From the NCBI GenBank assembly GCA_037142615.1, contig JBAXAI010000042.1, positions 1 to 29,319 on the forward strand: 29,319 nt of DNA. Direction: 5' to 3'. The notes beneath the pieces were generated by a model. The model saw only the letters and a list, made by a program, of their open reading frames with translations, was not told the DNA's origin and made no database searches. Position numbers and translations under genes: made by a program. The stretch comes from Spirochaetales bacterium. GTDB taxonomy: Bacteria; Spirochaetota; Spirochaetia; JABEVK01. Of this stretch, positions 3,231-24,663 are shown piece by piece (position 1 is the first letter of the stretch; every line of letters begins with the position of its first letter).

Positions 3231-4727
3231 CTAGGCCCCGAACCGCAGCACGTTCCACGACAGTGGGGGAAGGGGTACCGAAAGCGCGGCCGCCGACGTG
3301 GGGCGCACAGCCCGTTCCACAGGGGCCACGTTGTCGGGCTGGCTCTCGGTGTTCGTCGCCTTGAGGTCGGGGTGGGTGAGCACCGTGTGGCCGGCCAGCG
3401 AAAGGTGTTCCAAGCCAGCGAACTTTCCTGTGAGCTCCAGCGGCTCGCGGCTGCGGTTGACCACGAACAAGGTCAGGCCGCGGCCGTCGTCGCTGAGCAC
3501 CGCGCTGGCGTCGAGCCAGCTCACGAAGCCGTAGGTTTGGTTGTCGTAGCCGCCGGCGTCGAGCTTCACCTGCAGCGATGTGCCCCGGCCGTAGGTCGAG
3601 GCGTGGTACAGCGGCCAGAAAATCGTCTGTTTCCACGCCGGGCCCCCGGTGCGGGTCAGGATGGGGGCGATGACGTTCACCAGCTGAGCCAGGCACGCGA
3701 TCTTCACGCGGTCGGCGTGGCGCAGCAGGCTGTTGAGCAGGGTGCCGACCACCAGCGCGTCCTCGAAGGTGTACACATCCTCGAGCTGAGGCGGTCCCAC
3801 CGTCCACGGTTCGAGCTTCTTGTCCTGCTCGTGCGAATGGAACCACACGTTCCACTCGTCGAAGCTCAGGTTCACCTGCTTCTTGCTGCGCTTGCGGGCC
3901 CGAACGTAGTCCACCGTCGCCACCACCTGGTCGATGAAGCGGTCCATGCCCACGCCGCTGGCCAGAAAAGTCGGCAGGTCGTCGGCGCTGTTGTTGTAGT
4001 ACTCGTGCAGCGACAGGTAGTCGACCTTCTCGTAGCAATGCTCGAGCACGGTGGCCTCCCAGTGCGGGAAGGTGGGCATGTATTGGTTCGACGAGCCGAC
4101 CGCGACCAGCTCGAGCGTGGGGTCGAACAGCTTGATCGCCTTGGCGGTCTCGTAGGCTAGGCGCCCGTACTCGTCGGGGGCCTTTTGCCCCACCTGCCAC
4201 GGACCGTCGAGTTCGTTGCCCAGGCACCAGAGCTTGATGTTGTGCGGTTCGGCCACGCCGTGCGCCTTGCGCAGGTCCGACCAATAGGAGCCGCCCGGGT
4301 GGTTGGCGTATTCCACGAGAGCGCTGGCGGCCTCGAGGCCCCGCGTGCCTAGGTTGAGGGCCATCATGGCCTCGGTGCCGGCGGCCTTGGTCCACGCCAG
4401 AAACTCGTTGAGGCCAAACAAGTTGGGCTCCACGGCCTTCCACGCGAGGTCGAGGCGGCGCGGGCGCTTTTCGACGGGGCCCACGGAATCTTCCCAGTGG
4501 AACGAGCTGACGAAGTTGCCGCCCGGGTAGCGGACGACGGGCACCTTCAGCTCGCGGATCAGCGCCAACACGTCCTGGCGGAAGCCTTGCGCGTCGGCTT
4601 GCGGGTGCCCGGGCTCGTAGATGCCCCCATAGACGGCGCGGCCGAGGTGTTCGATGAACGAACCGAACAAGCGCTTGTCGACCTCGCCGACGGTGAACTC
4701 TTTGTCGAGGTGGATCTTGGCGGTCAT
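3231..4727 (-). CDS. abfA: Alpha-L-arabinofuranosidase, GH51
   Basis: FGSFIEHLGRAVYGGIYEPGHP, RYPGGNFVS, WCLGNE, SFDEWNVW, ACLAQLVNVI; RBS AGGAG before ATG 4727. Confidence 0.95.
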   Translation of the reverse strand: MTAKIHLDKEFTVGEVDKRLFGSFIEHLGRAVYGGIYEPGHPQADAQGFRQDVLALIRELKVPVVRYPGGNFVSSFHWEDSVGPVEKRPRRLDLAWKAVEPNLFGLNEFLAWTKAAGTEAMMALNLGTRGLEAASALVEYANHPGGSYWSDLRKAHGVAEPHNIKLWCLGNELDGPWQVGQKAPDEYGRLAYETAKAIKLFDPTLELVAVGSSNQYMPTFPHWEATVLEHCYEKVDYLSLHEYYNNSADDLPTFLASGVGMDRFIDQVVATVDYVRARKRSKKQVNLSFDEWNVWFHSHEQDKKLEPWTVGPPQLEDVYTFEDALVVGTLLNSLLRHADRVKIACLAQLVNVIAPILTRTGGPAWKQTIFWPLYHASTYGRGTSLQVKLDAGGYDNQTYGFVSWLDASAVLSDDGRGLTLFVVNRSREPLELTGKFAGLEHLSLAGHTVLTHPDLKATNTESQPDNVAPVERAVRPTSAAALSVPLPPLSWNVLRFGA

Positions 4728-4744
4728 GCAGAAACTCCTGAAGG

Positions 4745-4779
4745 GCGGCTGCGCCCAGTATACCACCGGAGGCAGCCGC
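4745..4779 (-). terminator. 8-bp inverted repeat downstream of phoX (possible weak terminator)
   Basis: GCGGCTGC (4745-4752) / GCAGCCGC (4772-4779), 19-nt loop, no strong U-tract. Confidence 0.3.
4757..4765 (-). promoter_or_regulatory. Extended -10 promoter for abfA
   Basis: TGgTATACT on the minus strand about 30 nt upstream of the start. Confidence 0.6.
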
Positions 4780-4791
4780 GTCTTGGGGAGT

Positions 4792-6663
4792 TTACTTCAG
4801 GGCGGGCAGACCGGCGAGGTAGCCCACGCCACCCTTCACGTCGATCGAGGGACCGTCGGCGAGGGCCTTGAGCAGTTCGGCCTTGTCGACGGCGGTGATG
4901 GGGAAGCGGGCGTTGTCGACGATCTCGTCACCGGGGTGCTGGTAGTTCGAGGTGAGGTAGGCGAACTTGCCGGCCTTTTCGACCACCGACAGGCCCGTGG
5001 CCTCGGCGCCGGCGGGAATCGACAGGATGCGCACCAGCTTCTCGCTGTCGAGCGAGTACGCCCACAGGAAGTTGTTCGTGTGCATGCCCGAATCCTCGCC
5101 GATGAACAACGTCCGCAGGGCGGGGCTGTAGGCCAGATTGTCGGGGTTGGCGATGCGGTTCACGTTGGCGCGGTTGCCGTACTCGTCGCCCACGGCGAGG
5201 TCCTGACCCTGGACCAGGCTGCGGAAACCGATGGCCTGGTAGGGCGACAGATCGCCTTCGCTCAGGATGAACTCGTACACGGCGCCCGCCGACACCTTGG
5301 TGAAGCTCAGCTGGTTGGCCGGATCGGTCTTGCTGGCTTCCATGCTCTTCGACTGGTCCGAGATGGCCACGTACAGGCGCTTCTCGGCGTTGTTGATGGC
5401 CAAGCCTTCCATCTTGTTCCACTCGGAGCAGGCGCCGAGCAGCGCCCCGTAGCGGCGGCTCTCGAGGAACGCGGCGGCCTTCTCCATGCCGGCCTTCACC
5501 TTGAGGTATTCGATGCCGGCCTTGTCGCGCGCGGCGAAGCTGTACTGCTTGATGGCGGTGAAGCCGTCGGCGGGCGCGGCGCTGGTTTCGAACAGGTCGC
5601 TGAACTTCAGGCCCTGGTCGAGGTAGGCGCGGATCTCGGCGTCGGTGGCGTGGCCCAGCTGGATCCAGGTCAGCGAGCCGCTGGGGAAGTCGGCCATCTT
5701 GCCTTGGTCGACCGAGGCTGCGTACAAGCTGCCCGCGCTGAGGTCAGCGGCCTTGTCGGCGACGTACATAAACAGCATGGTGTTCACCCCGTCGTCGCCG
5801 AAGTACACGGTGCGGTTGTCGCCGGCCACGAGGGCCAGTTCCTTCGAGAAGCGGCCCATGGAATAGTGTTTGACCGCCTTGAGCGTGTCGCCCTTGAGGC
5901 TGACCTCGGGCGTCCAGCCGTAGTCGTAGGGGTTGGCGGTGGAAGCGTCACCCGTGTAGAGCGTCACGAAGGCCTTCACGTTAGTCGAGTCCTTGGTCGC
6001 GTCGCCGAGTTCGCTTTCGAACCAGCGGGCGTCGGGCTCGTACTCTTCCGAGGCGAGGTGGGTGTTCCAGGGGCTGAGCGAGCCGTTGCAGGGAATCCAC
6101 AGGCCGTGGACGCCGGCGAAGTCGACCTTGCGCAGGCCCTTGACGGCCAGCGTTCCATCGGCTTTCTGCGTCAGTTCGGTGACCGAGATCGACGCGGGAA
6201 CCTTTCCGTAGGCGCTCTTGCCGGCGGCGTCGAGGGTGTCGTACTCAAAGTGGCTGAACAGGTACAGCTTGCCGTCCACCTGCACGAACGAGTTGGCGTC
6301 GGGCGCGTCCGAGATGAAGGGAACCGCGGGGCTCACCGACGCGTCGACGATCACTTCGCCCTTGGCGTTGATCGGGGATCCGGCGGCCACCAAAGCGCCT
6401 TTGGAATCCTTGAGACCGAAGGTCTGGTCGGTGGTGTACAGCGCTTTGTACTCGAGCGACACCGTCTTGGTGGTGCCGTCGGCCAGCGTCAGCGTGACCT
6501 GCGACTGGGTGTACGTGCGGATCATGTCGGGAATGGTCTGGGGCGCCGGCGTGCTGGTGAACTCGGCCGAAACGACGGGAACCGTCTTGGCCTCGGGAGC
6601 GCCCATGGCGAACAGAGTGGCGGAACCTGCGAGCAGGGCGCCAAGGATGAGTGACTTTTTCAT
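4792..6663 (-). CDS. phoX: PhoX-family (DUF839) alkaline phosphatase, secreted
   Basis: PCNGSLSPWNTHLASEEY, YDYGWTPEV, MGRFSKE, YFGDDG, NPDNL, IGEDS, GAEATG, NYQHPG; signal peptide; RBS GGAGG. Confidence 0.88.
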   Translation of the reverse strand: MKKSLILGALLAGSATLFAMGAPEAKTVPVVSAEFTSTPAPQTIPDMIRTYTQSQVTLTLADGTTKTVSLEYKALYTTDQTFGLKDSKGALVAAGSPINAKGEVIVDASVSPAVPFISDAPDANSFVQVDGKLYLFSHFEYDTLDAAGKSAYGKVPASISVTELTQKADGTLAVKGLRKVDFAGVHGLWIPCNGSLSPWNTHLASEEYEPDARWFESELGDATKDSTNVKAFVTLYTGDASTANPYDYGWTPEVSLKGDTLKAVKHYSMGRFSKELALVAGDNRTVYFGDDGVNTMLFMYVADKAADLSAGSLYAASVDQGKMADFPSGSLTWIQLGHATDAEIRAYLDQGLKFSDLFETSAAPADGFTAIKQYSFAARDKAGIEYLKVKAGMEKAAAFLESRRYGALLGACSEWNKMEGLAINNAEKRLYVAISDQSKSMEASKTDPANQLSFTKVSAGAVYEFILSEGDLSPYQAIGFRSLVQGQDLAVGDEYGNRANVNRIANPDNLAYSPALRTLFIGEDSGMHTNNFLWAYSLDSEKLVRILSIPAGAEATGLSVVEKAGKFAYLTSNYQHPGDEIVDNARFPITAVDKAELLKALADGPSIDVKGGVGYLAGLPALK

Positions 6664-6706
6664 GCTTCCTCCTAGGAGGCTCCAGCGTGACAAGATCGTG
6701 CAGGCG

Positions 6707-6748
6707 TTTCGTTAGGGCTTTGCTAGATTTTCGTGAGGAGTTTGCGGA
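6707..6748 (-). promoter_or_regulatory. PHO-box-like direct repeats upstream of phoX
   Basis: Minus strand CTCACG-AAAAT-CTAGCA-AAGCC-CTAACG-AAA at an 11-bp period (+ strand starts 6732, 6721, 6710); overlaps the GH79 stop codon. Confidence 0.65.
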
Positions 6749-8187
6749 AGTTCCGCGAAGGCGCATGACAGCGGCCCGAGTTCCAGAAGGGACGGCGCTG
6801 GCCCGGTGCGGTCGCCGAAGCGCACCAGGTCAGCCAGAGACGACAACAGGGCCCCGTTCCAGGTCGCCTCGCGCGAGGTCCAGCTGCCCGCCGGAGAAAG
6901 CACGTCCCACGAGGTCACCCCTCCCTCGACGGTGATCCGGGCCCGCGCCTTGCGGCTGAGGTTCACCACCACCAAGCACGAACGGCCGTCGGGCCAGGCG
7001 TGGTGCCACACCCGGAGGCGGCGGTCCGGTCCTCGCACCAAGGGCTTGGCGTGCACCAGCGGTCCCATGAGCCGCTTCCAGGCCACGGTGGCCCAGTAGT
7101 CCGGGCGCGGCTGCCAGGTGGCCGGGTCGAGCAGGCCGTAGTCGCCGCCCACCAGCGATTGGCGGAACAGGGCACCCACCCCCGCGTGCGACAACAAGCC
7201 CAGCTGGTCAAGCCACCAAGGCGTCGACAGCCACGTGTCGGACACGCCCGCCTGGCCACCGTACAGGGCGTGCCCGAGCTCCGTGAGCCAGATGGGGGCC
7301 GTGGCCGCCGAGCCCCGCTGCAGCGAACGCCGGGCATGCCGCAACCAGCGCAGCGAGCCGTCGAGCGCGCGCGGGTTGAGCAGGTTGGTCTCGCCGGCGC
7401 GGCGCACCGCCACGCGTCCCCGGTCGGACTGCTGGGGGTAGTAGTGAAAACTCAGCACGTCGAGGAAGGCCGACACCGGGCTGCGCCCCAGGGCCGGGAT
7501 AAGCGGGTTGGGCTCGCCCACCAGCGGCCAGATGGCCGAGGCGGGCCCAACGGTGCGGGTTCCCGGAGCCAGGCGTCGCACCAGGTCGGCAAACCGCGCG
7601 AAGTCGGCCAGGTACTGCCGGGGCGAAACGGCGTGGCGCAGGCCGAACAGAAAAGGGTAGGCGTTCACCTCGTTGCCAAACTCCCACGCGACCACGGGGT
7701 AACCTTTGCGGACGGTCTTGCGCAGCAGGCGCTCGGCGCCGGCCGACGTCCATCGTCCGTCGGCATCGCGAACCTCGGGGCCGGCCGACACCGTGAACAG
7801 CACCGAGAACCCCCGGGCAGCGGCCCAGCGGTTGAACTCGTCCCAACGCTTGCCCTTGAGCACCAGCACCGCGCCGACAGGGGCCGGCTCCGGCGGGCCT
7901 TCGCGCGCGAACCCGTACAAGATGCGGTCGGCCTCGGTGCCCCCCATGCGCAGCATGGCCGGAGCCAGGGCCTCGGCCCAGCGCGACAGGTCGGGCTGCG
8001 ACAGGTCGAGGGGCGCCGTGCGGTCGCGCGACAGACCCTGCGAGGTCCCTTTGGTGGGACCCCACCAGTGGCCGCCGAGCACCACCGACGTGTCGAGGGT
8101 CAGCGACACGAACTCGGGGTCTTGGCGGTGCAGCACTTCGGGCGACGGCACGATGTGGTAAAGCCGGGCTTGGGGCCGAGAACTCAA
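6712..8187 (-). CDS. GH79 beta-glucuronidase / heparanase-like hydrolase, no signal peptide
   Basis: LAPAMLRMGGTEAD, WEFGNE (acid/base), SFHYY, IWLTE (nucleophile), WLDQLG, RQSLVGGDYGLLD...PRPDYW; TTG start overlaps the upstream TGA. Confidence 0.85.
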   Translation of the reverse strand: MSSRPQARLYHIVPSPEVLHRQDPEFVSLTLDTSVVLGGHWWGPTKGTSQGLSRDRTAPLDLSQPDLSRWAEALAPAMLRMGGTEADRILYGFAREGPPEPAPVGAVLVLKGKRWDEFNRWAAARGFSVLFTVSAGPEVRDADGRWTSAGAERLLRKTVRKGYPVVAWEFGNEVNAYPFLFGLRHAVSPRQYLADFARFADLVRRLAPGTRTVGPASAIWPLVGEPNPLIPALGRSPVSAFLDVLSFHYYPQQSDRGRVAVRRAGETNLLNPRALDGSLRWLRHARRSLQRGSAATAPIWLTELGHALYGGQAGVSDTWLSTPWWLDQLGLLSHAGVGALFRQSLVGGDYGLLDPATWQPRPDYWATVAWKRLMGPLVHAKPLVRGPDRRLRVWHHAWPDGRSCLVVVNLSRKARARITVEGGVTSWDVLSPAGSWTSREATWNGALLSSLADLVRFGDRTGPAPSLLELGPLSCAFAELPQTPHENLAKP

Positions 8188-9161
8188 CCGGCCACCCGCC
8201 GCTCCAGAAAGGCTTCGAGACGGGTCAGCAGCTCGGGCGTGCCATCCTCAAAACGGAAGCGCCCGACCACGGGCGCCGAGGCCAGCGTGTCGAGCGAGGC
8301 CAAGAAACGCCTGAGATCGGTTTCGAAGGTTTCGAGGGAGCCGCTGTGTCCGCGTCCCGTGGCGACGAGTTGTTGGGCGTTGAGCGTTTGTTCGGGTTGG
8401 CCGATCTGGGGCAGGGCCAGCACCGGCTTGCCCAGCGCCAGCGCTTCGGCCAGCACCTGATGACCCGCGGGACTGACGACGCCAGCGCAGTCGAGCAGCG
8501 CCTCGTCAAAGTTCTCAACCGGACTGGGGAAAACGCGGTAGCGCAAACCGGGGACAGCGCGGAGCACCGCCAGTGCGCGCGCGCGGTACGAGGTCTTGAG
8601 GTGGACGAGGAGCTCGGAGCCCGCCCGGGCGGCGCGGGCCTTGAGGGCCGGTCGTAGCAGGGGCCCTACGTCGCCGTGGAAGAACGACACCAGGATGCGC
8701 TCCGACCACGGGCCTTCGAGAAGCCGCGAGCCAACAACACCCAACCAGGCGCCACGAACTCTCACCCGGGTCAGCACGCCCGGGTGGTTAATCTGCAGAA
8801 TGGGCAGCCCGGCCAGCCAGCCCGCCCACGCCAAATGGGGTTCGTAGTCGGAAACGACCGCCTGGTAGCTTTGGCGGCGCAGCTGGCGGGCCAGTCGCCA
8901 CACCATGAGCGGAAACGCCACGAGCACGGGCAACATCGCCCGGAACGAAGCCCCCCAGCGGATGCGGTCGCCGCGGTGTTCAAAGTGCAGGCCGGGAATA
9001 CGGGTGCTCGGGCGCGGGCCGACCTTGGCAGCCAAAAACTCGACCACCGACGCGGGCAGGAACAACCCCACCTCGTGGCGCGCTTCCAGGTGGGGCAGCA
9101 GCACCGACAGCCGCGAGACGTGGCCGAAGCCCTCGCCGGCACACGAATACGCAAGCTTCAT
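8184..9161 (-). CDS. GT-B glycosyltransferase, MJ1255/VC2487-like family
   Basis: N-terminal YSCAGEGFGHVSR, VVSDYEP, C-terminal AGHQVLAEALALGKPVLALP...EQTLNA; RBS GGAGG. Confidence 0.85.
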   Translation of the reverse strand: MKLAYSCAGEGFGHVSRLSVLLPHLEARHEVGLFLPASVVEFLAAKVGPRPSTRIPGLHFEHRGDRIRWGASFRAMLPVLVAFPLMVWRLARQLRRQSYQAVVSDYEPHLAWAGWLAGLPILQINHPGVLTRVRVRGAWLGVVGSRLLEGPWSERILVSFFHGDVGPLLRPALKARAARAGSELLVHLKTSYRARALAVLRAVPGLRYRVFPSPVENFDEALLDCAGVVSPAGHQVLAEALALGKPVLALPQIGQPEQTLNAQQLVATGRGHSGSLETFETDLRRFLASLDTLASAPVVGRFRFEDGTPELLTRLEAFLERRVAG

Positions 9162-9220
9162 GGCACCTCCACGGCCGATTCTCCCGGTTCACGTCCCCGT
9201 GTCGACGTTCCTGAGGGCAC

Positions 9221-9259
9221 TTCATCGGTTTCTCACCGAGAACTGACGCAACCCGAACG
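9221..9259 (+). promoter_or_regulatory. PHO-box-like direct repeats in the divergent GT/MFS intergenic region
   Basis: TTCATC (9221), CTCACC (9232), CTGACG (9243), CGAACG (9254) at an 11-bp period; in-phase TTCACG at 9188. Confidence 0.6.
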
Positions 9260-9291
9260 AACCGCCCGGCGGGGGCGGTCACACTGCCGGA

Positions 9292-10533
9292 ATGGATGCA
9301 CACCCACCTCGAAGGCGCCGGTCGCTGGTTCTTCTGTCGCTGGGGAACTCGCTCGACAACGCCGAAGGTGGCCTGGTCAACGCCTTGTTCCCCATGATCC
9401 GCACGTCTCTGGGGTTGGGCCTCGAGACGCTGGGCCTGCTTTCGGGCGTGGCGAGGCTTTCGCGCATGCTCGCGGCGCCCGTCTGGGCGTGGCTGGGCGA
9501 CCGGATGCCGCGCAAGCTGCTGCTGTTCCTGACCACCGGGGTGTGGAGCCTGTGGACGGTGGCTGCTGCGTTCTCGACCAGTTGGGATCAGCTCTTCTGG
9601 CTCTACACGCTTGGAGCCCTGGGCACTGTCGCCGCCGAGCCGCTGGTGCAGTCCATGCTTGCCGACCTGTACCCGGACGCCGAGCGGGGCCGGGCCTTCG
9701 GGGCCTCGCGCGGGGTGGCCGCGCTCGTGCTCGTGGCCTCGACGCCGCTCGTCGGGCTCTTGACGGGAACCCCCGACGGCTGGCGCTGGGGCATGGGGCT
9801 CATGGGTGGCCTAGGCTCGATCTCGGGCCTGCTCATCTTGCTGTTTGTGCCCGAACCGCGGCGCGAGCAGGCGTCACCCGAAGCCCCGAAGGTGACCTGG
9901 GTGCAGATTCGCGCCTTGGCGCGCGTGCGCACCCTGCTGCTCATGGTCCCCTCGGTGATGCTCAATACCAGCCTGGTGCTGGTCAGCTACGTCGTCACCT
10001 TCCTCGTCGACGTGCGGGGCTTGAGCAACGCGCAGGGCACGTGGGCCATGGCCGCCACCGCGCTGGGCTTTGTGTTCAGCTCGTTCGCCGGGGGGTGGCT
10101 GGGTGACCGTTTTGAGCGGTGGTGGCCCCGACGCGGGCGCATCTGGCTGATGCAGGGCTTCTTGCTCGCGTACGCCGCCACCAGCTTTCTGGCGCTGCAG
10201 GTGGCCTGGAGCGAGGTGTGGATGACCTACGCGGCGTTTGGATTGCTGGGCCTGGTGAGCGCCATCGGGTACTCGGGCTGCGTGCTCCCCATGATCGCGC
10301 GCGTCAGTCCGCCGGCGCTTCGCACCACGGTGTACGGCGTGCTGCTGTCGTTTGTGCAGGGCGCCAGCACGGCCGTTCTCAGTGTGGCGGTGGGTTACTT
10401 CTCGGTACTGTACGGGTTTGCCACCGTGCTGCTGTGGGTCGGCAGCATACCCTACCTCGTGAACGCCGTGCTGTGGTTCGGGTTCTGGAAGCTTTACCCG
10501 TCCGAGAGCAGTTCGACGCGCGACGAGATGTAG
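9292..10533 (+). CDS. MFS transporter
   Basis: About 12 hydrophobic segments; motif A-like WLGDRMPRK and repeat GWLGDRFER; YPDAERGRAFG. Confidence 0.88.
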   Translation: MDAHPPRRRRSLVLLSLGNSLDNAEGGLVNALFPMIRTSLGLGLETLGLLSGVARLSRMLAAPVWAWLGDRMPRKLLLFLTTGVWSLWTVAAAFSTSWDQLFWLYTLGALGTVAAEPLVQSMLADLYPDAERGRAFGASRGVAALVLVASTPLVGLLTGTPDGWRWGMGLMGGLGSISGLLILLFVPEPRREQASPEAPKVTWVQIRALARVRTLLLMVPSVMLNTSLVLVSYVVTFLVDVRGLSNAQGTWAMAATALGFVFSSFAGGWLGDRFERWWPRRGRIWLMQGFLLAYAATSFLALQVAWSEVWMTYAAFGLLGLVSAIGYSGCVLPMIARVSPPALRTTVYGVLLSFVQGASTAVLSVAVGYFSVLYGFATVLLWVGSIPYLVNAVLWFGFWKLYPSESSSTRDEM

Positions 10534-11558
10534 TCCAGCGATTCCCGGCGCAGCACCGAACGGTAGGCTCCCTCACCGTGCAGGCGCGGCGGCTTCGTAC
10601 CGCGGTAGTCGCCCAGCCGGTCCGAGCGGTCCGGCGACGTCCAGCTCACCAGCCCGAGGTGGCCGCTTTTCAGTTCCAACGAAGTGAACCCGCGCTTGCC
10701 CACCGCGCAGCCGGCGTTGAACAGGCAGGGCACCAGCATGTCGCCGTACACCCGCGACACCAGCGGCTGCGCCGTCTGCTGAGCCCGCAGGTAGTCGCGT
10801 CGCAGGTTACGTACCGAGCGCCGTATCCACGCCTTGCGCCCCTCGTCGGCCGCTGGAAAGTCCCGGCAAAGGCGCTCGATCTGAATGCCCAGCGACTCCT
10901 GCTTCGACAGCGACTCGAACAGGGGGCGGTGCGTGTGCCCCATCACCGAAAGAAGCTTCTTGCCGCGCGAGAACTCGTAGATGGCCTTCTCGAGCTTGAA
11001 CTTCTTTTGCGAGTCGTGGGCCACCGACGTGTTGCCGATGCCCAGGCTGTTGGCGAACAGCCGCAGGCTCCAGCCGATGGCCTGGTTGTAGCGCCCCGAA
11101 TTGGCCACGCCCGCCTGGTGCCCGTGGAAGACGAAGATGTCTTGGCCCGGCAGCTCGAGGATGAGGCTCTCGCCGTCGAAGTGATCGGTGTAGTACGGAT
11201 CACTCTGCTTTCCGGGGAGAATCTCGTGGTTGCCGATCAACCAGATGAGCTTGCCGCGGTCCCGGAAGCGGGCAAACAGGTCGTACACGGGCTTCCACGC
11301 GCGCACGATTTCGGCGCGCGGCACCCGCAGCAGTTCCTCGATATCACCGTTCAGAATCAGCGTGAACCCGCGGGGGAGGTAGTAGTGTTCGAGCGCGTCG
11401 ACAAACAAGGCACCGTTGCGCAGAAAGTCATCCTTGCGGTCGCCGCGGCCCATGTGCAGGTCGCTGAGAATGACAAAGCGCTCGCCACGCAGCACCTTGC
11501 GTCGGGGCGACGTCTGCCAAAGCGACTCGAGCCGCTCCTGCGAGGCCCCGAAACTCAA
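10494..11558 (-). CDS. Calcineurin-like metallophosphoesterase (LpxH/PlcP-like)
   Basis: SDLH, NGDIEE, GNHE, FHGH, GHTH metal motifs; TTG start overlaps the ugd TGA. Confidence 0.82.
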   Translation of the reverse strand: MSFGASQERLESLWQTSPRRKVLRGERFVILSDLHMGRGDRKDDFLRNGALFVDALEHYYLPRGFTLILNGDIEELLRVPRAEIVRAWKPVYDLFARFRDRGKLIWLIGNHEILPGKQSDPYYTDHFDGESLILELPGQDIFVFHGHQAGVANSGRYNQAIGWSLRLFANSLGIGNTSVAHDSQKKFKLEKAIYEFSRGKKLLSVMGHTHRPLFESLSKQESLGIQIERLCRDFPAADEGRKAWIRRSVRNLRRDYLRAQQTAQPLVSRVYGDMLVPCLFNAGCAVGKRGFTSLELKSGHLGLVSWTSPDRSDRLGDYRGTKPPRLHGEGAYRSVLRRESLDYISSRVELLSDG

Positions 11559-12907
11559 ACGAGCACCTGCTCGGCAGCCAGCACGGGGGCGCCCACCTGA
11601 CGGTAGTAGAAGCCGTCGTCGGCCATGCGCTGCCGGTTGTACTGGTTACGGCCGTCGAAGATCACGGGGCGCCGCAACAGGCGGGCCATCTCGCCAAAAT
11701 CGGGGCTGCGGAACTCCTTCCATTCGGTGAGCAGCAGCAGCGCCGACCCCCCGCGGAGGGCTTCGTACTTGCTCTCGCACCAGGTGACCGCGTCGCCGAG
11801 GTCGGCCAGCAGCTCGCGCGCGCCGGCCAGGGCCTTGGGGTCGTAGGCCCGCACGTGGGCCCCGCGGGCCACCAGGTCGCGGATGACCACCAGGCTGGGG
11901 GCCTCGCGCAGGTCGTCGGTCTCGGGCTTGAAGGCCAGGCCCCACACCGCGAAGGTCAGGCCGCCCAGGTCGTCGCCAAACTCCTCGGCCACCATGCGCA
12001 CCAGCACCGACTTCTGGTTCTCGTTCACCGCAACCACGGCCTCGAGCAGCGGTGAGTGCACCTCGCAGGCCTGAGCCGTGCGGATGAGCGCTCGCAGATC
12101 TTTGGGGAAGCACGAGCCGCCAAACCCCGTGCCCGGGTACAGAAAGGAGTAGCCGATGCGCGGGTCGGAACCCACCCCGACGCGCACCAGGTTGACGTCG
12201 GCGCCCACCGCGCCGCAGATGGCCGCCACTTCGTTCATGAAGCTGATGCGGGTGGCCAGCATGGCGTTCGAGGCGTACTTGGTCATCTCCGACGACCGCA
12301 GGTCCATTTCGATGAAGCGGTCATGGCTGCGCAGAAACGGGCGGTAGAGTTCCTTCATCAGCGCCAGGGCGCGGGGATCGTCGCCGCCCAGAACCACACG
12401 GTCGGGGGTCATGAAGTCTTCGAGGGCCGCGCCCTCCTTCAGGAACTCGGGGTTGTTGACCAGGCTGACTTGGCTCACCACCCCGCGCGATTCCTGCTCG
12501 TCGCGGACCAGGGCTCCCAAGCGCTCCGTGGTGCCGATGGGCACGGTCGATTTGGTGACCAGCACCACCGGGTGTGACAGGGCAGAGCCTATGGATCGGG
12601 CCGCCGCGTAGAGGGCCGTCAGGTCGCTGCCACCGGAGGCATCGGTGGGGGTTCCTACGGTCAGGAAGATGACGCTGGCACCGGGGATGGCCGACGAGAG
12701 ATCGGTGGTAAAGGCCAGTTCGCCCGTCTCGAGGCGTTCGCGCACCAGGTCTTCCAGGCCGGGCTCGAAAATCGGTACCTGTCCGCGCCGCAGCAGCGCC
12801 ACCTTGCGCGCGTCGATATCGACGCAGGTGACCCGGTTCCCCATCCGGGCGAAGCACGCTCCCGTCACCAGGCCGACGTAGCCGGTTCCTACAATCACGA
12901 TGTTCAT
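11555..12907 (-). CDS. ugd: UDP-glucose 6-dehydrogenase
   Basis: GTGYVG Rossmann motif, TKSTVPIGT, NPEFLKEG, KYASN, GFGGSCFPKD, WGLAFKPETDDLRE; RBS AAGGGG; start at ATG 12907. Confidence 0.95.
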   Translation of the reverse strand: MNIVIVGTGYVGLVTGACFARMGNRVTCVDIDARKVALLRRGQVPIFEPGLEDLVRERLETGELAFTTDLSSAIPGASVIFLTVGTPTDASGGSDLTALYAAARSIGSALSHPVVLVTKSTVPIGTTERLGALVRDEQESRGVVSQVSLVNNPEFLKEGAALEDFMTPDRVVLGGDDPRALALMKELYRPFLRSHDRFIEMDLRSSEMTKYASNAMLATRISFMNEVAAICGAVGADVNLVRVGVGSDPRIGYSFLYPGTGFGGSCFPKDLRALIRTAQACEVHSPLLEAVVAVNENQKSVLVRMVAEEFGDDLGGLTFAVWGLAFKPETDDLREAPSLVVIRDLVARGAHVRAYDPKALAGARELLADLGDAVTWCESKYEALRGGSALLLLTEWKEFRSPDFGEMARLLRRPVIFDGRNQYNRQRMADDGFYYRQVGAPVLAAEQVLV

Positions 12908-12941
12908 GGAGTCCCCCTTGCGGGCGATTGTGGTCGGCGGA

Positions 12942-12980
12942 CGTGAGGATACCGTGTCCCAGCGATGAGAATTGGGCGAG
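12942..12980 (-). promoter_or_regulatory. PHO-box-like direct repeats upstream of ugd
   Basis: Minus strand CTCGCC-CAATT-CTCATC-GCTGG-GACACG-GTATC-CTCACG, 11-bp period. Confidence 0.55.
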
Positions 12981-13004
12981 TTCTCGCGACTTGTTCCGGC
13001 GGAA

Positions 13005-13032
13005 CTAACCAAGTTCTAACAATATTCTGTCT
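13005..13032 (+). promoter_or_regulatory. PHO-box-like direct repeats upstream of the histone-like gene
   Basis: CTAACC-AAGTT-CTAACA-ATATT-CTGTCT, 11-bp period, in an AT-rich stretch. Confidence 0.55.
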
Positions 13033-13107
13033 AAATACAAACGAAGATTGAGATTGGAAAAGATCGCGCCGCCCTAGACGCGGATGCGAAAAGACAAGGA
13101 GTACTGT

Positions 13108-13452
13108 ATGTCGAAACTGGACAAGAACCTTCAGGAAGCCAAGGCCTGGATCAAGAAGAAGGGCCCCGACTCTCCTGGCGCCGCTGCGGCCGTCCACGCT
13201 TTGGGTGCGTGGGAAGCCAAGGTGACGAAGGCCGAAGAGGCCAAGGCGAAGCTCGAGTCCGCGCGTGCAGAGCTCAAGACCGCTCGAAAAGCCCTTCTGC
13301 AGGCCGTCAAAGCCGCCAAGGACCTCAAGAAGGCCAAGCCCGCGAAGCCGGCCCCTGTGAAGGCAGCCCCCGCCAAGCCCGCCGCGCCGAAGAAGGCCGC
13401 CCCGAAGAAGGCGGCACCCAAGAAGGTTGCCCCCACCGAACCGAAGGCCTAG
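13108..13452 (+). CDS. Small basic protein with helical N-terminal part and histone H1-like PAK/PKKAA tail
   Basis: RBS AAGGAG before ATG 13108; strong AAG/GCC codon bias; tail KPAKPAPVKAAPAKPAAPKKAAPKKAAPKKVAP. Confidence 0.75.
   Translation: MSKLDKNLQEAKAWIKKKGPDSPGAAAAVHALGAWEAKVTKAEEAKAKLESARAELKTARKALLQAVKAAKDLKKAKPAKPAPVKAAPAKPAAPKKAAPKKAAPKKVAPTEPKA
13387..13431 (+). repeat. Three imperfect 15-bp coding tandem repeats (PKKAA)
   Basis: ccgaagaaggccgcc ccgaagaaggcggca cccaagaaggttgcc. Confidence 0.8.
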
Positions 13453-13991
13453 GCTCCCCGAAGTACGGTTCGGGCCCATTCGACCCAAACCCCGTCCACT
13501 TCGCGAAACAACGCAACGTGGTCGAGGGTCCACTGGGCCGAAGGGACGTCCACTCCCGCCAGCTGCCGCTCAAGGACGAGGAGCTGTTCGGGGGTCAGGT
13601 CGTGGTACGCCAGCGACACGTGTGGCTCGAAGGGTGCCTGCGGGCCCTTTTGCCACGCGGAGAACTCTAGCAGATGCCGGTGAACCCTCTCGAGGCCCGC
13701 CGACAGGGGAACGCGCCAGCCGGCCATGCCTCGGCGGGGTTCGCCGTAGGTGACGAAAAAGAGCCCATCGGTGGCCACAGAACAGGGCTGGCCTTTCCTG
13801 GCGTGCTCCAGAAACCGTTCGGCGACAGACTCTGCCTGGTCGTCCGGGCACACCAGCCCGGTTCGCAGCGTGAGGTGGGCCGGGTAGCGCAAGGCCTCGA
13901 ACGTCCCTAGGTTCCGGTTCCAGGTTTGCCGAAAAGCCTCCAGCGGGGCCCGCTGCGCCTCGGGTGGCACTGTGATGACGATGAACCTCAT
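13449..13991 (-). CDS. 2H phosphoesterase (2'-5' RNA ligase / cyclic phosphodiesterase fold)
   Basis: Two HxT/S motifs, PAHLTL and FEPHVSL; 180 aa; ATG 13991 overlaps the IMPase TGA; RBS GGAGG; it is the C-terminal part of ORF 13449..14702. Confidence 0.85.
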   Translation of the reverse strand: MRFIVITVPPEAQRAPLEAFRQTWNRNLGTFEALRYPAHLTLRTGLVCPDDQAESVAERFLEHARKGQPCSVATDGLFFVTYGEPRRGMAGWRVPLSAGLERVHRHLLEFSAWQKGPQAPFEPHVSLAYHDLTPEQLLVLERQLAGVDVPSAQWTLDHVALFREVDGVWVEWARTVLRGA

Positions 13992-14779
13992 GTCCAGGCC
14001 TCCACGAGCGAGGGAAAGGCGCCGCGGCCGGCGGCCAGCACGTGGTCGCCACCCTCGGCGCTCACGGAATGGTAATGGCCACCGGCCTCGAGGACAAGGT
14101 GGGCGCCCGCGGCGACGTCCCACGGCTGCAACGAACGCTGGGCGTGACCGACCAGCGACCCCTGGGCCACGTAGGCCAGATCGAGCGCTGCCGCTCCGTG
14201 GGAGCGCGTCTTGCGCGCCGACGATCCGATGCGTTCCAGAAAGCCCCGCATGTAGTGCTGATCGTCGGATCGCGAGCCCCGGCTGTGCGACAGAATGCCG
14301 CGGGCTAGTCCCTCCTCCGAAACGTGAAGGCGCCGTGCCCCGCACCAGGCTCCCTGGCCGTCGAGCGCCGAGAAGACTTGGCCGAGCAGGGGCGCCGCCA
14401 CGACCGAAGCCACCGGTCGGCCATAGCGCCACAGCGGATGCGTGCTTGCCGCGGTCCGGTGGTAGCAGGCCACCGACACACAGAACCACGGAAGGCGGTG
14501 ATGGTAGTTCACCGTGCCGTCCAACGGGTCTACGATCCACAGCCATTCGGCCTGGCCGTCGTCGGGCGGGCCGTCCTCTTCGAGGATTCCCTCCCCAGGA
14601 AACGAGCGCGACAGCGTGGCACGGATGAGATCTCCCGCTTCGCGGTCGGCCGTCAGGCTGAGGTCGTAGGTGCCCTTGAGCGTCACCTCGTGCTCGCTCC
14701 ACAGGGCGTTCTTCAGGTACTCCGCAGCGTGTCCTGCGGCCTCTTTCGCCGTGTGGAGCCGACGCTCAGGATCGGTCAA
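13988..14779 (-). CDS. Inositol monophosphatase (SuhB/FIG superfamily) sugar phosphatase
   Basis: TADREA, ILEE, WIVDPLDGTVNY, GAAALDLAYVAQG, QPWDVAAG; TTG start overlaps the phnE TGA. Confidence 0.9.
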   Translation of the reverse strand: MTDPERRLHTAKEAAGHAAEYLKNALWSEHEVTLKGTYDLSLTADREAGDLIRATLSRSFPGEGILEEDGPPDDGQAEWLWIVDPLDGTVNYHHRLPWFCVSVACYHRTAASTHPLWRYGRPVASVVAAPLLGQVFSALDGQGAWCGARRLHVSEEGLARGILSHSRGSRSDDQHYMRGFLERIGSSARKTRSHGAAALDLAYVAQGSLVGHAQRSLQPWDVAAGAHLVLEAGGHYHSVSAEGGDHVLAAGRGAFPSLVEAWT

Positions 14780-18197: not shown

Positions 18198-18261
18198 GAT
18201 GAACCTTCCTTTTTGGATGTTCCGGGCCGCTGCCCGGATGGTGGAGAGTTTGTTCCGAGTG

Positions 18262-18321
18262 GGTGAAGGGAAGATGAGCGTTGCTTTCAGAATCTTGTGT
18301 TTTGGGTGAGGAAGCGGTTAG
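18262..18321 (-). promoter_or_regulatory. Two PHO-box-like repeat pairs upstream of phnD (internal promoter)
   Basis: Minus strand CTAACC-GCTTC-CTCACC and CTCATC-TTCCC-TTCACC, each with 11-bp spacing. Confidence 0.7.
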
Positions 18322-24611: not shown

Positions 24612-24663
24612 TTTCGTGAGCGACACATGAAAGTCTGTTGCCTTTTCGTTAGGAAACCATGAG
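24612..24663 (-). promoter_or_regulatory. PHO-box-like repeats upstream of phnG
   Basis: Minus strand CTCATG-GTTTC-CTAACG-AAAAG-GCAACA and TTCATG-TGTCG-CTCACG-AAA; CTAACGAAA and CTCACGAAA also occur upstream of phoX. Confidence 0.72.

Follow-up and report, generated by a model that had tools for sequence, protein, structure and literature searches.

A Pho-boxed glycosyltransferase family of spirochaetes and its GH79 partner, candidates for the synthesis and turnover of a glucuronosyl lipid

The DNA analysed here (the window, 29,319 nucleotides) is the whole of contig C42 (JBAXAI010000042.1) in the 4.27-Mb genome of a freshwater spirochaete. Inside a Pho island, between phoX and the C-P lyase (phn) operon, lies a stretch of five genes, which encode a UDP-glucose dehydrogenase (ugd), a metallophosphoesterase (MPP), a major facilitator superfamily protein (MFS), a glycosyltransferase (GT) and a glycoside hydrolase of family GH79. 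A reading made from the letters of the DNA alone (the sequence-only reading) had taken these five adjacent genes for a phosphate-starvation module to make, flip and recycle a glucuronosyl lipid. The five neighbouring open reading frames (ORFs) do belong to the families claimed, but three more ORFs separate ugd from phnE. The genes, with phoX as context, are as follows:

6712-8187, minus strand: GH79 (PF03662)
8184-9161, minus strand: GT (PF13528)
9292-10533, plus strand: MFS (PF07690)
10494-11558, minus strand: MPP (PF00149)
11555-12907, minus strand: ugd (PF03721/PF00984/PF03720)
4792..6663, minus strand: PhoX-family alkaline phosphatase (PF05787, E 2e-22)

As had been proposed, ugd appears translationally coupled to MPP, and GT to GH79, each pair having a 4-base overlap. 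Every gene from ugd to phoX is on the minus strand except MFS, which diverges from GT and overlaps the 3′ end of MPP by 40 bases. It is possible that ugd-MPP and GT-GH79 form a non-contiguous operon that contains an antisense MFS gene. A scan for terminators performed at chance level (6 found, 5.4 expected), and thus does not settle whether transcripts read through from ugd-MPP across the antisense gene into GT-GH79. The GH79, GT and MPP proteins are basic (pI 9.6-10.4), and none of the three has a transmembrane or signal-like stretch. Near-identical DNA is present in freshwater metagenome runs: in one run, public contigs that are 95-100% alike cover all 30 bins of positions 4500-14000 without joints or indels, with no single piece spanning the whole stretch.

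A comparison of gene neighbourhoods does not bear out the five genes as one conserved module, since their order is found in a sister lineage only. In three other genomes of the genus the genes are scattered, except that GT and GH79 are paired in two of them. The sister lineage was added by 19 metagenome loci: one of these (L188) reads ugd-MPP-MFS(inverted)-GT up to the contig end, and another (L170) begins at a contig start with MPP-MFS(inverted)-GT-GH79. In a further locus (L171), MPP, GT and GH79 are contiguous, back to back behind a 19.8-bit array of the kind described below. GT also adjoins MPP in L029, L177 and L181.

The conserved core is the pair of GT and GH79. Among 60 relatives, strong matches were found to GT in 21, to MPP in 30 and to GH79 in 11, and all 11 GH79-bearing relatives also have GT and MPP. 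We analysed the best 80 of 155 confirmed GH79 matches as loci; GT lies within 23 of these loci, MPP and ugd within one each, and MFS within none. In a quickly made tree, these GH79 sequences fall into a spirochaete clade, which holds 41 loci and the window's own sequence, and a second, mixed clade of 39. In the spirochaete clade, GT occurs in 39 of 41 genomes, at the locus in 21 and elsewhere in 18 of the other 20, against a background of 21/60 relatives (strong matches) and 23 genomes in a sample of 300 from the phylum. That sample has three GH79 genomes, two of them with GT. GT-GH79 pairs are arranged as GT>GH79, GH79>GT, divergently or convergently, in several well-supported subclades, and the two genes are adjacent twice outside spirochaetes (L099 and L131). 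Named homologues are almost all from Spirochaetota, and the GH79 homologues include proteins of cultured, non-pathogenic species, judging by their source names (P0066, P0075 and P0120).

The second line of evidence concerns regulation. An 11-bp tandem unit is found upstream of pstS in the window's genome and its relatives, and we trained a matrix on 27 such units from eight pstS-family promoters, none of them from the window. Among 8.5 million genome positions the matrix ranks the phoX array 3rd and the phnD array 19th, and the gene for an ABC sugar-phosphate-type binding protein comes 5th in the merged ranking; because these genes rank so high, the matrix behaves as a model of a Pho box. The genome also encodes PhoU and a PhoB-like regulator. 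A generic repeat search did not detect the arrays, which were found by the matrix alone. The regulatory features around the five genes are as follows:

13005-13037, plus strand: strongest Pho-type array of the genome (rank 1 of 8.5 million), facing a small ORF at 13108-13452
9221..9264, plus strand: Pho-type 11-bp tandem array facing MFS (9221-9253 has rank 37 of 8.5 million, 12.7 bits)
12926..12980, minus strand: degenerate Pho-type array facing ugd (rank 1949 for its three best units; single units score from 6.0 down to -2.6)
6705..6737, minus strand: Pho-type array of phoX (rank 3), overlapping the GH79 stop codon
9178..9205, minus strand: sigma-70-like promoter candidate for GT-GH79 (9/12 matches)

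Pho-like arrays had been reported in both promoter regions of the module. They do exceed chance (ranks 1 and 37), but the strong ones point at MFS and at the small ORF rather than at GT or ugd, and the matrix scan of the genome found no GT-facing array in the window. The MFS-facing array keeps its orientation in the sister loci L170 (16.3 bits) and L188 (18.8 bits), and L188 has a forward 11.8-bit array before ugd that is clearer than the window's. The promoter candidate is the sole sigma-70-like site found in 6500-13600, where 0.3 would be expected, and its hexamers and spacing recur, as judged by eye, upstream of GT in the same two sister loci.

Across the GT family the picture is much clearer. 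Counting an array if it is forward, scores at least 9 bits and lies at -130 to -15, we obtained 39 for the 68 distinct GT upstream regions, and most of these arrays begin between -55 and -85. The reverse strand gave 2/68, shuffled sequences 1.5%, and the remaining ORFs of those loci 30/920. The 51 best-scoring GT homologues include 37 with a forward array, and three of the 14 that lack one (L021, L171 and L177) sit within operons whose first gene has an array; a distant GT clade is mostly without. Sequence comparison thus shows that the GT family shares its 11-bp tandem box with pstS, phoX and phnD, and control by phosphate starvation, which had been proposed for this one locus, is well supported for the GT family class-wide.

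The GT matches PF13528 above the Pfam cut-off (E 1e-22). PF13528 and TIGR00661 are its best matches in Pfam and NCBIfam, and its structure neighbours in the Atlas all belong to PF13528. It had been called an MJ1255-type enzyme; the PF13528 family assignment stands, but the score against TIGR00661 (MJ1255/VC2487) is 88.8 bits, far under the cut-off of 195.9. The further description of the enzyme as GT28-like needs correcting, since the nearest solved structures are of family GT1: in a profile search the top matches were YjiC, plant UGTs and OleD, with MurG reaching just E 0.02. We also considered an MGD/YpfP-type GT28 enzyme and ruled it out, as the protein falls outside the MGDG-synthase family; PF06925 (the GT28 diacylglycerol glycosyltransferase domain) has no match in the window's genome, in a search that was positive in 3 of 14 control genomes. 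Nor does the GT belong to the GT4 clade of Agt, having PF13528/PF04101 and no PF00534, and being outside the genome's six PF00534 matches. Residues H14 and D105 are invariant among its homologues. Both GT1 and GT28 enzymes are inverting, so a beta-linked product, cleavable by a GH79 enzyme, would be expected from a GT of either type, and the earlier pairing of an inverting GT with a beta-glucuronidase therefore holds. The GT is often solitary behind its own Pho box, as expected of a one-step synthase. We regard it as a putative inverting glycolipid synthase.

Several other contexts of GT relatives were observed. In a more distant clade, a radical SAM (SPASM) gene comes directly after GT (L099:6629-8837, L189:3870-6061, L190:10765-13043, L191:4890-7108 and L215:411-2607), with GH79 adjoining the pair in one of these five genomes; the radical SAM partner possibly oxidises the sugar in place or tailors the lipid in another way. 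In a distant clade without arrays (L197, L198, L199 and L208, with a similar ORF in L200 and L201), GT lies beside a CDP-alcohol phosphatidyltransferase gene, and in L208 it is also downstream of ugd. One complete genome (L205) has a full GT plus a shortened second copy beside a transposase (4693-5724 and 12782-13324). Searches of plasmids found one unannotated GT relative and one MPP relative in an uninformative context.

The GH79 protein (491 aa) matches PF03662 over the cut-off (E 8e-23), and its profile matches proheparanase with E 1.5e-62. The structural model (pLDDT 91) consists of a TIM barrel and a beta-sandwich, with heparanase and leech hyaluronidase as the best folds. The heparanase residues of the catalytic Glu pair and the glucuronate -1 subsite (D62, T97, N224, E225, E343, G350 and Y391) correspond to D32, T84, N172, E173, E303, G310 and Y350, which are invariant in 21 aligned sequences except for T84 (S in 2/21), and the protein matches the glucuronate-conserved -1 subsite residues listed in the part of PMC9500389 available to us. 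The equivalent of heparanase Gly349 is Tyr309. A hydrophobic N-terminus is absent from this protein and from the 20 homologues aligned with it. Its start is uncertain: the database call is 12 residues shorter, and the modelled first strand favours TTG at 8187. An insertion of about 17 residues after the subsite aspartate, not found in heparanase, contains the invariant residues G38, W41 and W42, and this Trp-Trp loop could line a hydrophobic aglycone site. Endo-acting heparanase is a nearer relative of the protein than is the exo-acting Acidobacterium enzyme. The protein keeps the glucuronate residues, and comparison ties its gene to GT; we consider it a putative beta-glucuronidase or transglycosidase that would act on the GT product. 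The suggested role as a reversal enzyme is plausible, although GH79 is more than an enzyme for phosphate resupply, given that many lineages co-transcribe it with GT or provide it with a separate Pho array.

The MPP protein has all five metal motifs of calcineurin-like enzymes, with D33, H35, D72, N110, H111, H145, H208 and H210 invariant in 27 sequences. As PlcP proxies we used two proteins of Rhodobacterales plasmids that are PlcP-type by annotation (L233, and L234, which is beside a glucosyltransferase). Aligned with these and with LpxH, MPP has the motif GNH, not GNR. A His at this position in PlcP, as opposed to an Arg in LpxH, tells the two families apart, and the alignment rows show this difference between MPP plus the two PlcP-type proteins and LpxH. 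With hhalign, MPP gave a probability of 96-97% to the two PlcP-type proteins (over about 180 columns) and 75% to Escherichia coli LpxH (44 columns). The top fold for the MPP model (pLDDT 79) among 48,161 chains was LpxH (Z 14.0, rmsd 4.2, 208 aligned); YfcE scored Z 12.7. An identity as LpxH was nonetheless rejected: no LpxH model is among the NCBIfam matches of 27 members at E 0.01, the motif differs, and MPP has only the fold in common with LpxH. MPP is about 25% identical to the PlcP proxies and about 65-90 residues longer, with a helical insert. A search of 61 spirochaete genomes (the window's included) with one of these proxies, made without a positive control, found nothing; searches of solved structures with the MPP sequence or profile found nothing related; and among 1.84 billion representatives the profile had 409 matches at E 1e-30, none of them named. 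The resemblance to PlcP-type proteins that had been noticed is thus upheld in fold, profile and metal motifs, with MPP likelier a distant sister family of PlcP than an orthologue. We take it to be a putative phospholipase C or phosphatidate phosphatase.

The ugd product has three UDPG/MGDP dehydrogenase domains. It matches TIGR03026 over the cut-off and is matched best by UDP-glucose models, the TuaD model being the best of these although its score (465) is below the equivalog cut-off (700). It is the sole close copy in the genome; a second copy, on C22, is distant. Of the 21 GT genomes, 19 encode a UDP-glucose dehydrogenase of one type or the other, and ugd has a forward array where it diverges from GT (L031 and L033) or lies beside GH79 (L076).

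For MFS, the sequence-only reading had invoked an LtaA-type flippase, which our results do not support. Among solved structures, MFS comes closest to the lipid transporters SPNS2 (E 1e-14) and SPNS1 (E 2e-12), and LtaA is not among the 22 solved MFS relatives at E 0.01. Nor is MFS linked to GT or GH79 outside its own lineage: it is absent from 80/80 GH79 loci and 20/20 GT loci, and was found in 2 of 19 metagenome loci. The gene is a second copy in the genome (its match to the C45 paralogue is 46%, that to the copy in L188 69%), and L171 has the MPP-GT-GH79 operon without it. MFS is therefore best read as a lineage-specific duplicate inserted into an MPP-GT-GH79 operon, the direction of this event being what the comparison suggests.

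The lipid theme of the earlier reading is well supported by the PlcP-like MPP and by the linkage to GT of a GH79 with a glucuronate subsite. In addition, a gene of the diacylglycerol (DAG) kinase family is directly 3′ of GH79 in L101, L103, L112, L123 and L229, four of which are in one subclade. Scans of chosen nearest ORFs (96, 119, 52 and 65 proteins) found, beside GT, a Zn-dependent phospholipase C domain (L202), a patatin (L028) and alkaline phosphatases (L089, L177 and L183), with phoU-phoB or ugd beside GT in single lineages; most other scanned neighbours are unrelated. The same scans revealed a run of GT4, GH79, GT and alkaline phosphatase with several Pho arrays (L089:4705-10373, L182 and L183:4141-9704), and, in one clade, a YdjM-family membrane protein after GT-GH79 (L022:10420-11061, L122:2753-3373, L172:3101-3790 and L174:7802-8521).

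We think, with a little more than even confidence, that these genes take part in a PhoB-regulated exchange of phospholipid for glycolipid, whose regulation and gene linkage emerge from comparison and whose donor, acceptor and GH79 substrate we infer. Phosphate starvation would induce GT. The PlcP-like MPP would strip the phosphate-bearing head from phospholipids, releasing DAG, and Ugd would supply UDP-glucuronate. The inverting GT would then add glucuronate to DAG in beta linkage, producing an anionic phosphorus-free lipid that could replace phosphatidylglycerol. More tentatively, the cytoplasmic GH79 enzyme might dock on the membrane and split this lipid into DAG and glucuronate, after which the DAG kinase encoded beside GH79 in one clade might return DAG to phospholipid synthesis. 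GH79 would be an accessory, because many GT genomes (10 of 21) are without it. The Pho-boxed, Spinster-like MFS would be a local addition that may move lysolipids or the glycolipid, the core being independent of it. We give somewhat less than an even chance to a broader proposal, in which the spirochaete PF13528 subfamily is a new class of phosphate-regulated beta-glucuronosyl-DAG synthases, with GH79 as its dedicated lipid glycosidase or transglycosidase, and in which both, together with the PlcP sister family and the DAG kinase, form a reversible phospholipid-glycolipid cycle.

Several observations weigh against this exchange. Both strong arrays in the window are oriented away from GT and ugd, and an own array precedes just 8 of 27 MPP and 4 of 84 GH79 upstream regions. 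Several rows behind these array counts come from close kin, which makes them look more independent than they are, and some genomes were entered twice, under a G handle and again under an L locus. MPP occurs without GT in 14/60 relatives, and GT without a strong MPP match in five. In the mixed, non-spirochaete GH79 clade, a related GT is present in just 15/39 genomes, and one GH79 genome of the phylum sample is without GT. As for the donor, ugd is common anyway (16 of 39 relatives that lack GT), it adjoins GT or GH79 in few loci (L031, L033, L076, L188 and L208), and no ugd match was obtained in two GT genomes, whose completeness is 92% and 81%. The closest solved relatives of GT are GT1 small-molecule enzymes. 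The cases of GH79 next to DAG kinase are mostly from one clade, and the window's genome has no match to that kinase, with only a distant PF00781 gene elsewhere. Finally, co-transcription of GT and GH79 would induce synthesis and hydrolysis together.

In a first alternative GH79 would work forward: as a retaining transglycosidase, it would take glucuronosyl units from the lipid and assemble them into di- or oligo-glucuronosyl lipids or into an anionic glycan of the surface, with DAG passing to the kinase; plant SFR2 is an analogy for such a forward-acting lipid transglycosidase. Action during starvation would fit the co-transcription of GH79 with GT in 15 of 32 classed paired loci and the arrays that GH79 has of its own in several others (L075, L085, L119, L123 and L229). 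A DAG kinase directly after GH79 in five genomes, a GT4 gene upstream of it in L089 and L183, and the greater nearness to endo-acting heparanase could be understood likewise. However, the neighbour scans found no conserved polymerase, flippase or export genes near GT or GH79, GH79 is absent from nearly half of the GT genomes, and where the layout is divergent or GH79>GT, GT is mostly the only gene that the array faces. We consider this analogy-based alternative unlikely, if the most serious of those considered here.

Still more doubtful is that GT and GH79 are a pair for conjugation and deconjugation of small molecules, in which GT1-like glucuronidation is followed by export through MFS and release by GH79, all induced by starvation for another reason. 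The resemblance of GT to YjiC, plant UGTs and OleD, the source name ‘UDP:flavonoid glycosyltransferase YjiC’ carried by several of its homologues, and the MFS gene adjoining it in the window could suggest this. Against this stand the confinement of MFS to the window's lineage and the lack of recurring genes for aglycone biosynthesis, while the partners that do recur are lipid enzymes and phosphatases. Class-wide Pho control is also better explained by phosphorus sparing.

It is improbable that the product of GT is a neutral glycolipid (glucosyl- or galactosyl-DAG) or that GT adds sugar to a different lipid, with ugd a bystander and GH79 drifted to that other sugar. Known lipid GTs do take several UDP-sugars, as reported in the available part of PMC8231724, the single close ugd copy is located elsewhere in other members of the genus, and Tyr309 occupies the heparanase Gly349 position. 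On the other hand, the remaining residues of the glucuronate subsite are invariant or retained, and ugd itself has a forward array next to GT or GH79 in three loci. Least of all do we expect that unrelated co-regulated genes have merely gathered in a phosphate island: the five-gene order is limited to one lineage and, in 17 other genomes, most genes next to MPP have no relation to it, but GT-GH79 adjacency recurs in varied layouts across clades, even outside spirochaetes, and the two genes co-occur in 39/41 genomes. Mere co-location likely holds for MFS and perhaps for ugd.

The nearest known system is PlcP-Agt lipid remodelling, described for Agrobacterium Agt, SAR11 GTcp, and plcP-agt(-dagK) of Methylosinus and Burkholderia (PMC4796936, PMC8231724, PMC9239053, PMC13691135 and PMC5193443, each in the part accessible to us), including a reported plcP-agt-dagK operon in Burkholderia (PMC13691135). 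The systems share Pho-boxed genes (here family-wide for GT), a supply of UDP-glucuronate, a GT-B enzyme whose gene neighbours that of a calcineurin-like esterase with the LpxH/PlcP fold and, in some lineages, a linked DAG kinase. However, Agt-type enzymes of family GT4 are retaining (PMC8231724), whereas the spirochaete GT is a PF13528 protein with GT1/GT28-like motifs, for which a beta rather than an alpha product is predicted. The spirochaete esterase differs from PlcP-type proteins in its length, helical insert and low identity, and the accessible portions of the PlcP-Agt papers cited mention no counterpart of the matched GH79 glycosidase. The spirochaete system works like PlcP-Agt but is not a member of it: its GT is of another family, and its esterase is a distant sister at most.

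Comparison with other systems leads to similar distinctions. With the GH79 beta-glucuronidases (heparanase, leech hyaluronidase and Acidobacterium AcGH79; PMC9500389, as far as accessible) the spirochaete GH79 shares the fold, the catalytic pair and the glucuronate subsite, but it differs from known GH79 enzymes in having no signal peptide, in its Trp-containing insertion, and in its genomic partners, which are a GT and a lipid kinase instead of genes of glycan catabolism. The S. aureus YpfP-LtaA pair consists of a glycolipid synthase and an MFS flippase. The spirochaete locus likewise has a GT-B enzyme beside an MFS gene, but this gene is Spinster-like, divergent and limited to one lineage, and PF06925 is missing from the genome. 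The MJ1255/VC2487 family is the best match of GT, yet the spirochaete proteins are a subfamily under its cut-off, and we found no characterised member of that family in print. Our literature search covered listings and the beginnings of abstracts, with most subscription papers and supplements outside its scope, and found no paper that deals with the function of MJ1255/VC2487/PF13528, with a GH79 enzyme active on glycolipids or with the way spirochaetes remodel their lipids when phosphate is limiting. The portions of PMC13157583 and PMC12722247 seen hold nothing on GT family function or on GH79 acting on a glycolipid; supplementary tables of plcP neighbourhoods (e.g. of PMC4796936), outside that scope, could list such a GT.

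In the accessible parts of the literature cited, the known phosphorus-sparing glucuronosyl lipids of bacteria are made by retaining GT4 enzymes, and an enzyme that removes them is not named. The present comparison offers candidate functions for three uncharacterised families (PF13528 GTs, cytoplasmic heparanase-like GH79 proteins and the long PlcP-like esterase), would extend lipid remodelling to the Spirochaetota, and defines a usable spirochaete Pho box. Free-living spirochaetes would probably exchange the phospholipids of their membranes for an acidic lipid without phosphorus and break this lipid down again afterwards, and, if this is true, they show how bacteria could dismantle starvation glycolipids.

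Additional features of the Pho island and its genome were noted. The small ORF at 13108-13452 (plus strand), which faces the strongest array, encodes a Lys/Ala/Pro-rich protein of 114 aa without a match in Pfam or NCBIfam; the equivalent place in L188 (2233-2676) is taken by another small Lys/Ala-rich ORF, which differs from it. The product of the ORF at 13108-13452 could, as a guess, be a nucleoid or polyphosphate-binding protein. Within the phosphonate region of the window, Pho-type arrays precede phnG (24631-24663, minus strand) and phnD (18246-18321, minus strand). Elsewhere in the genome, high-ranking arrays at G000:C26:46210 (plus), C10:20910 (plus), C18:21285 (minus) and C23:48212 (minus) mark candidate further members of the regulon, and the pstS array (G000:C49:24133-24176) lies between pstS and a divergent gene pair that, by eye, resembles a DUF47 protein and a PiT-type transporter.

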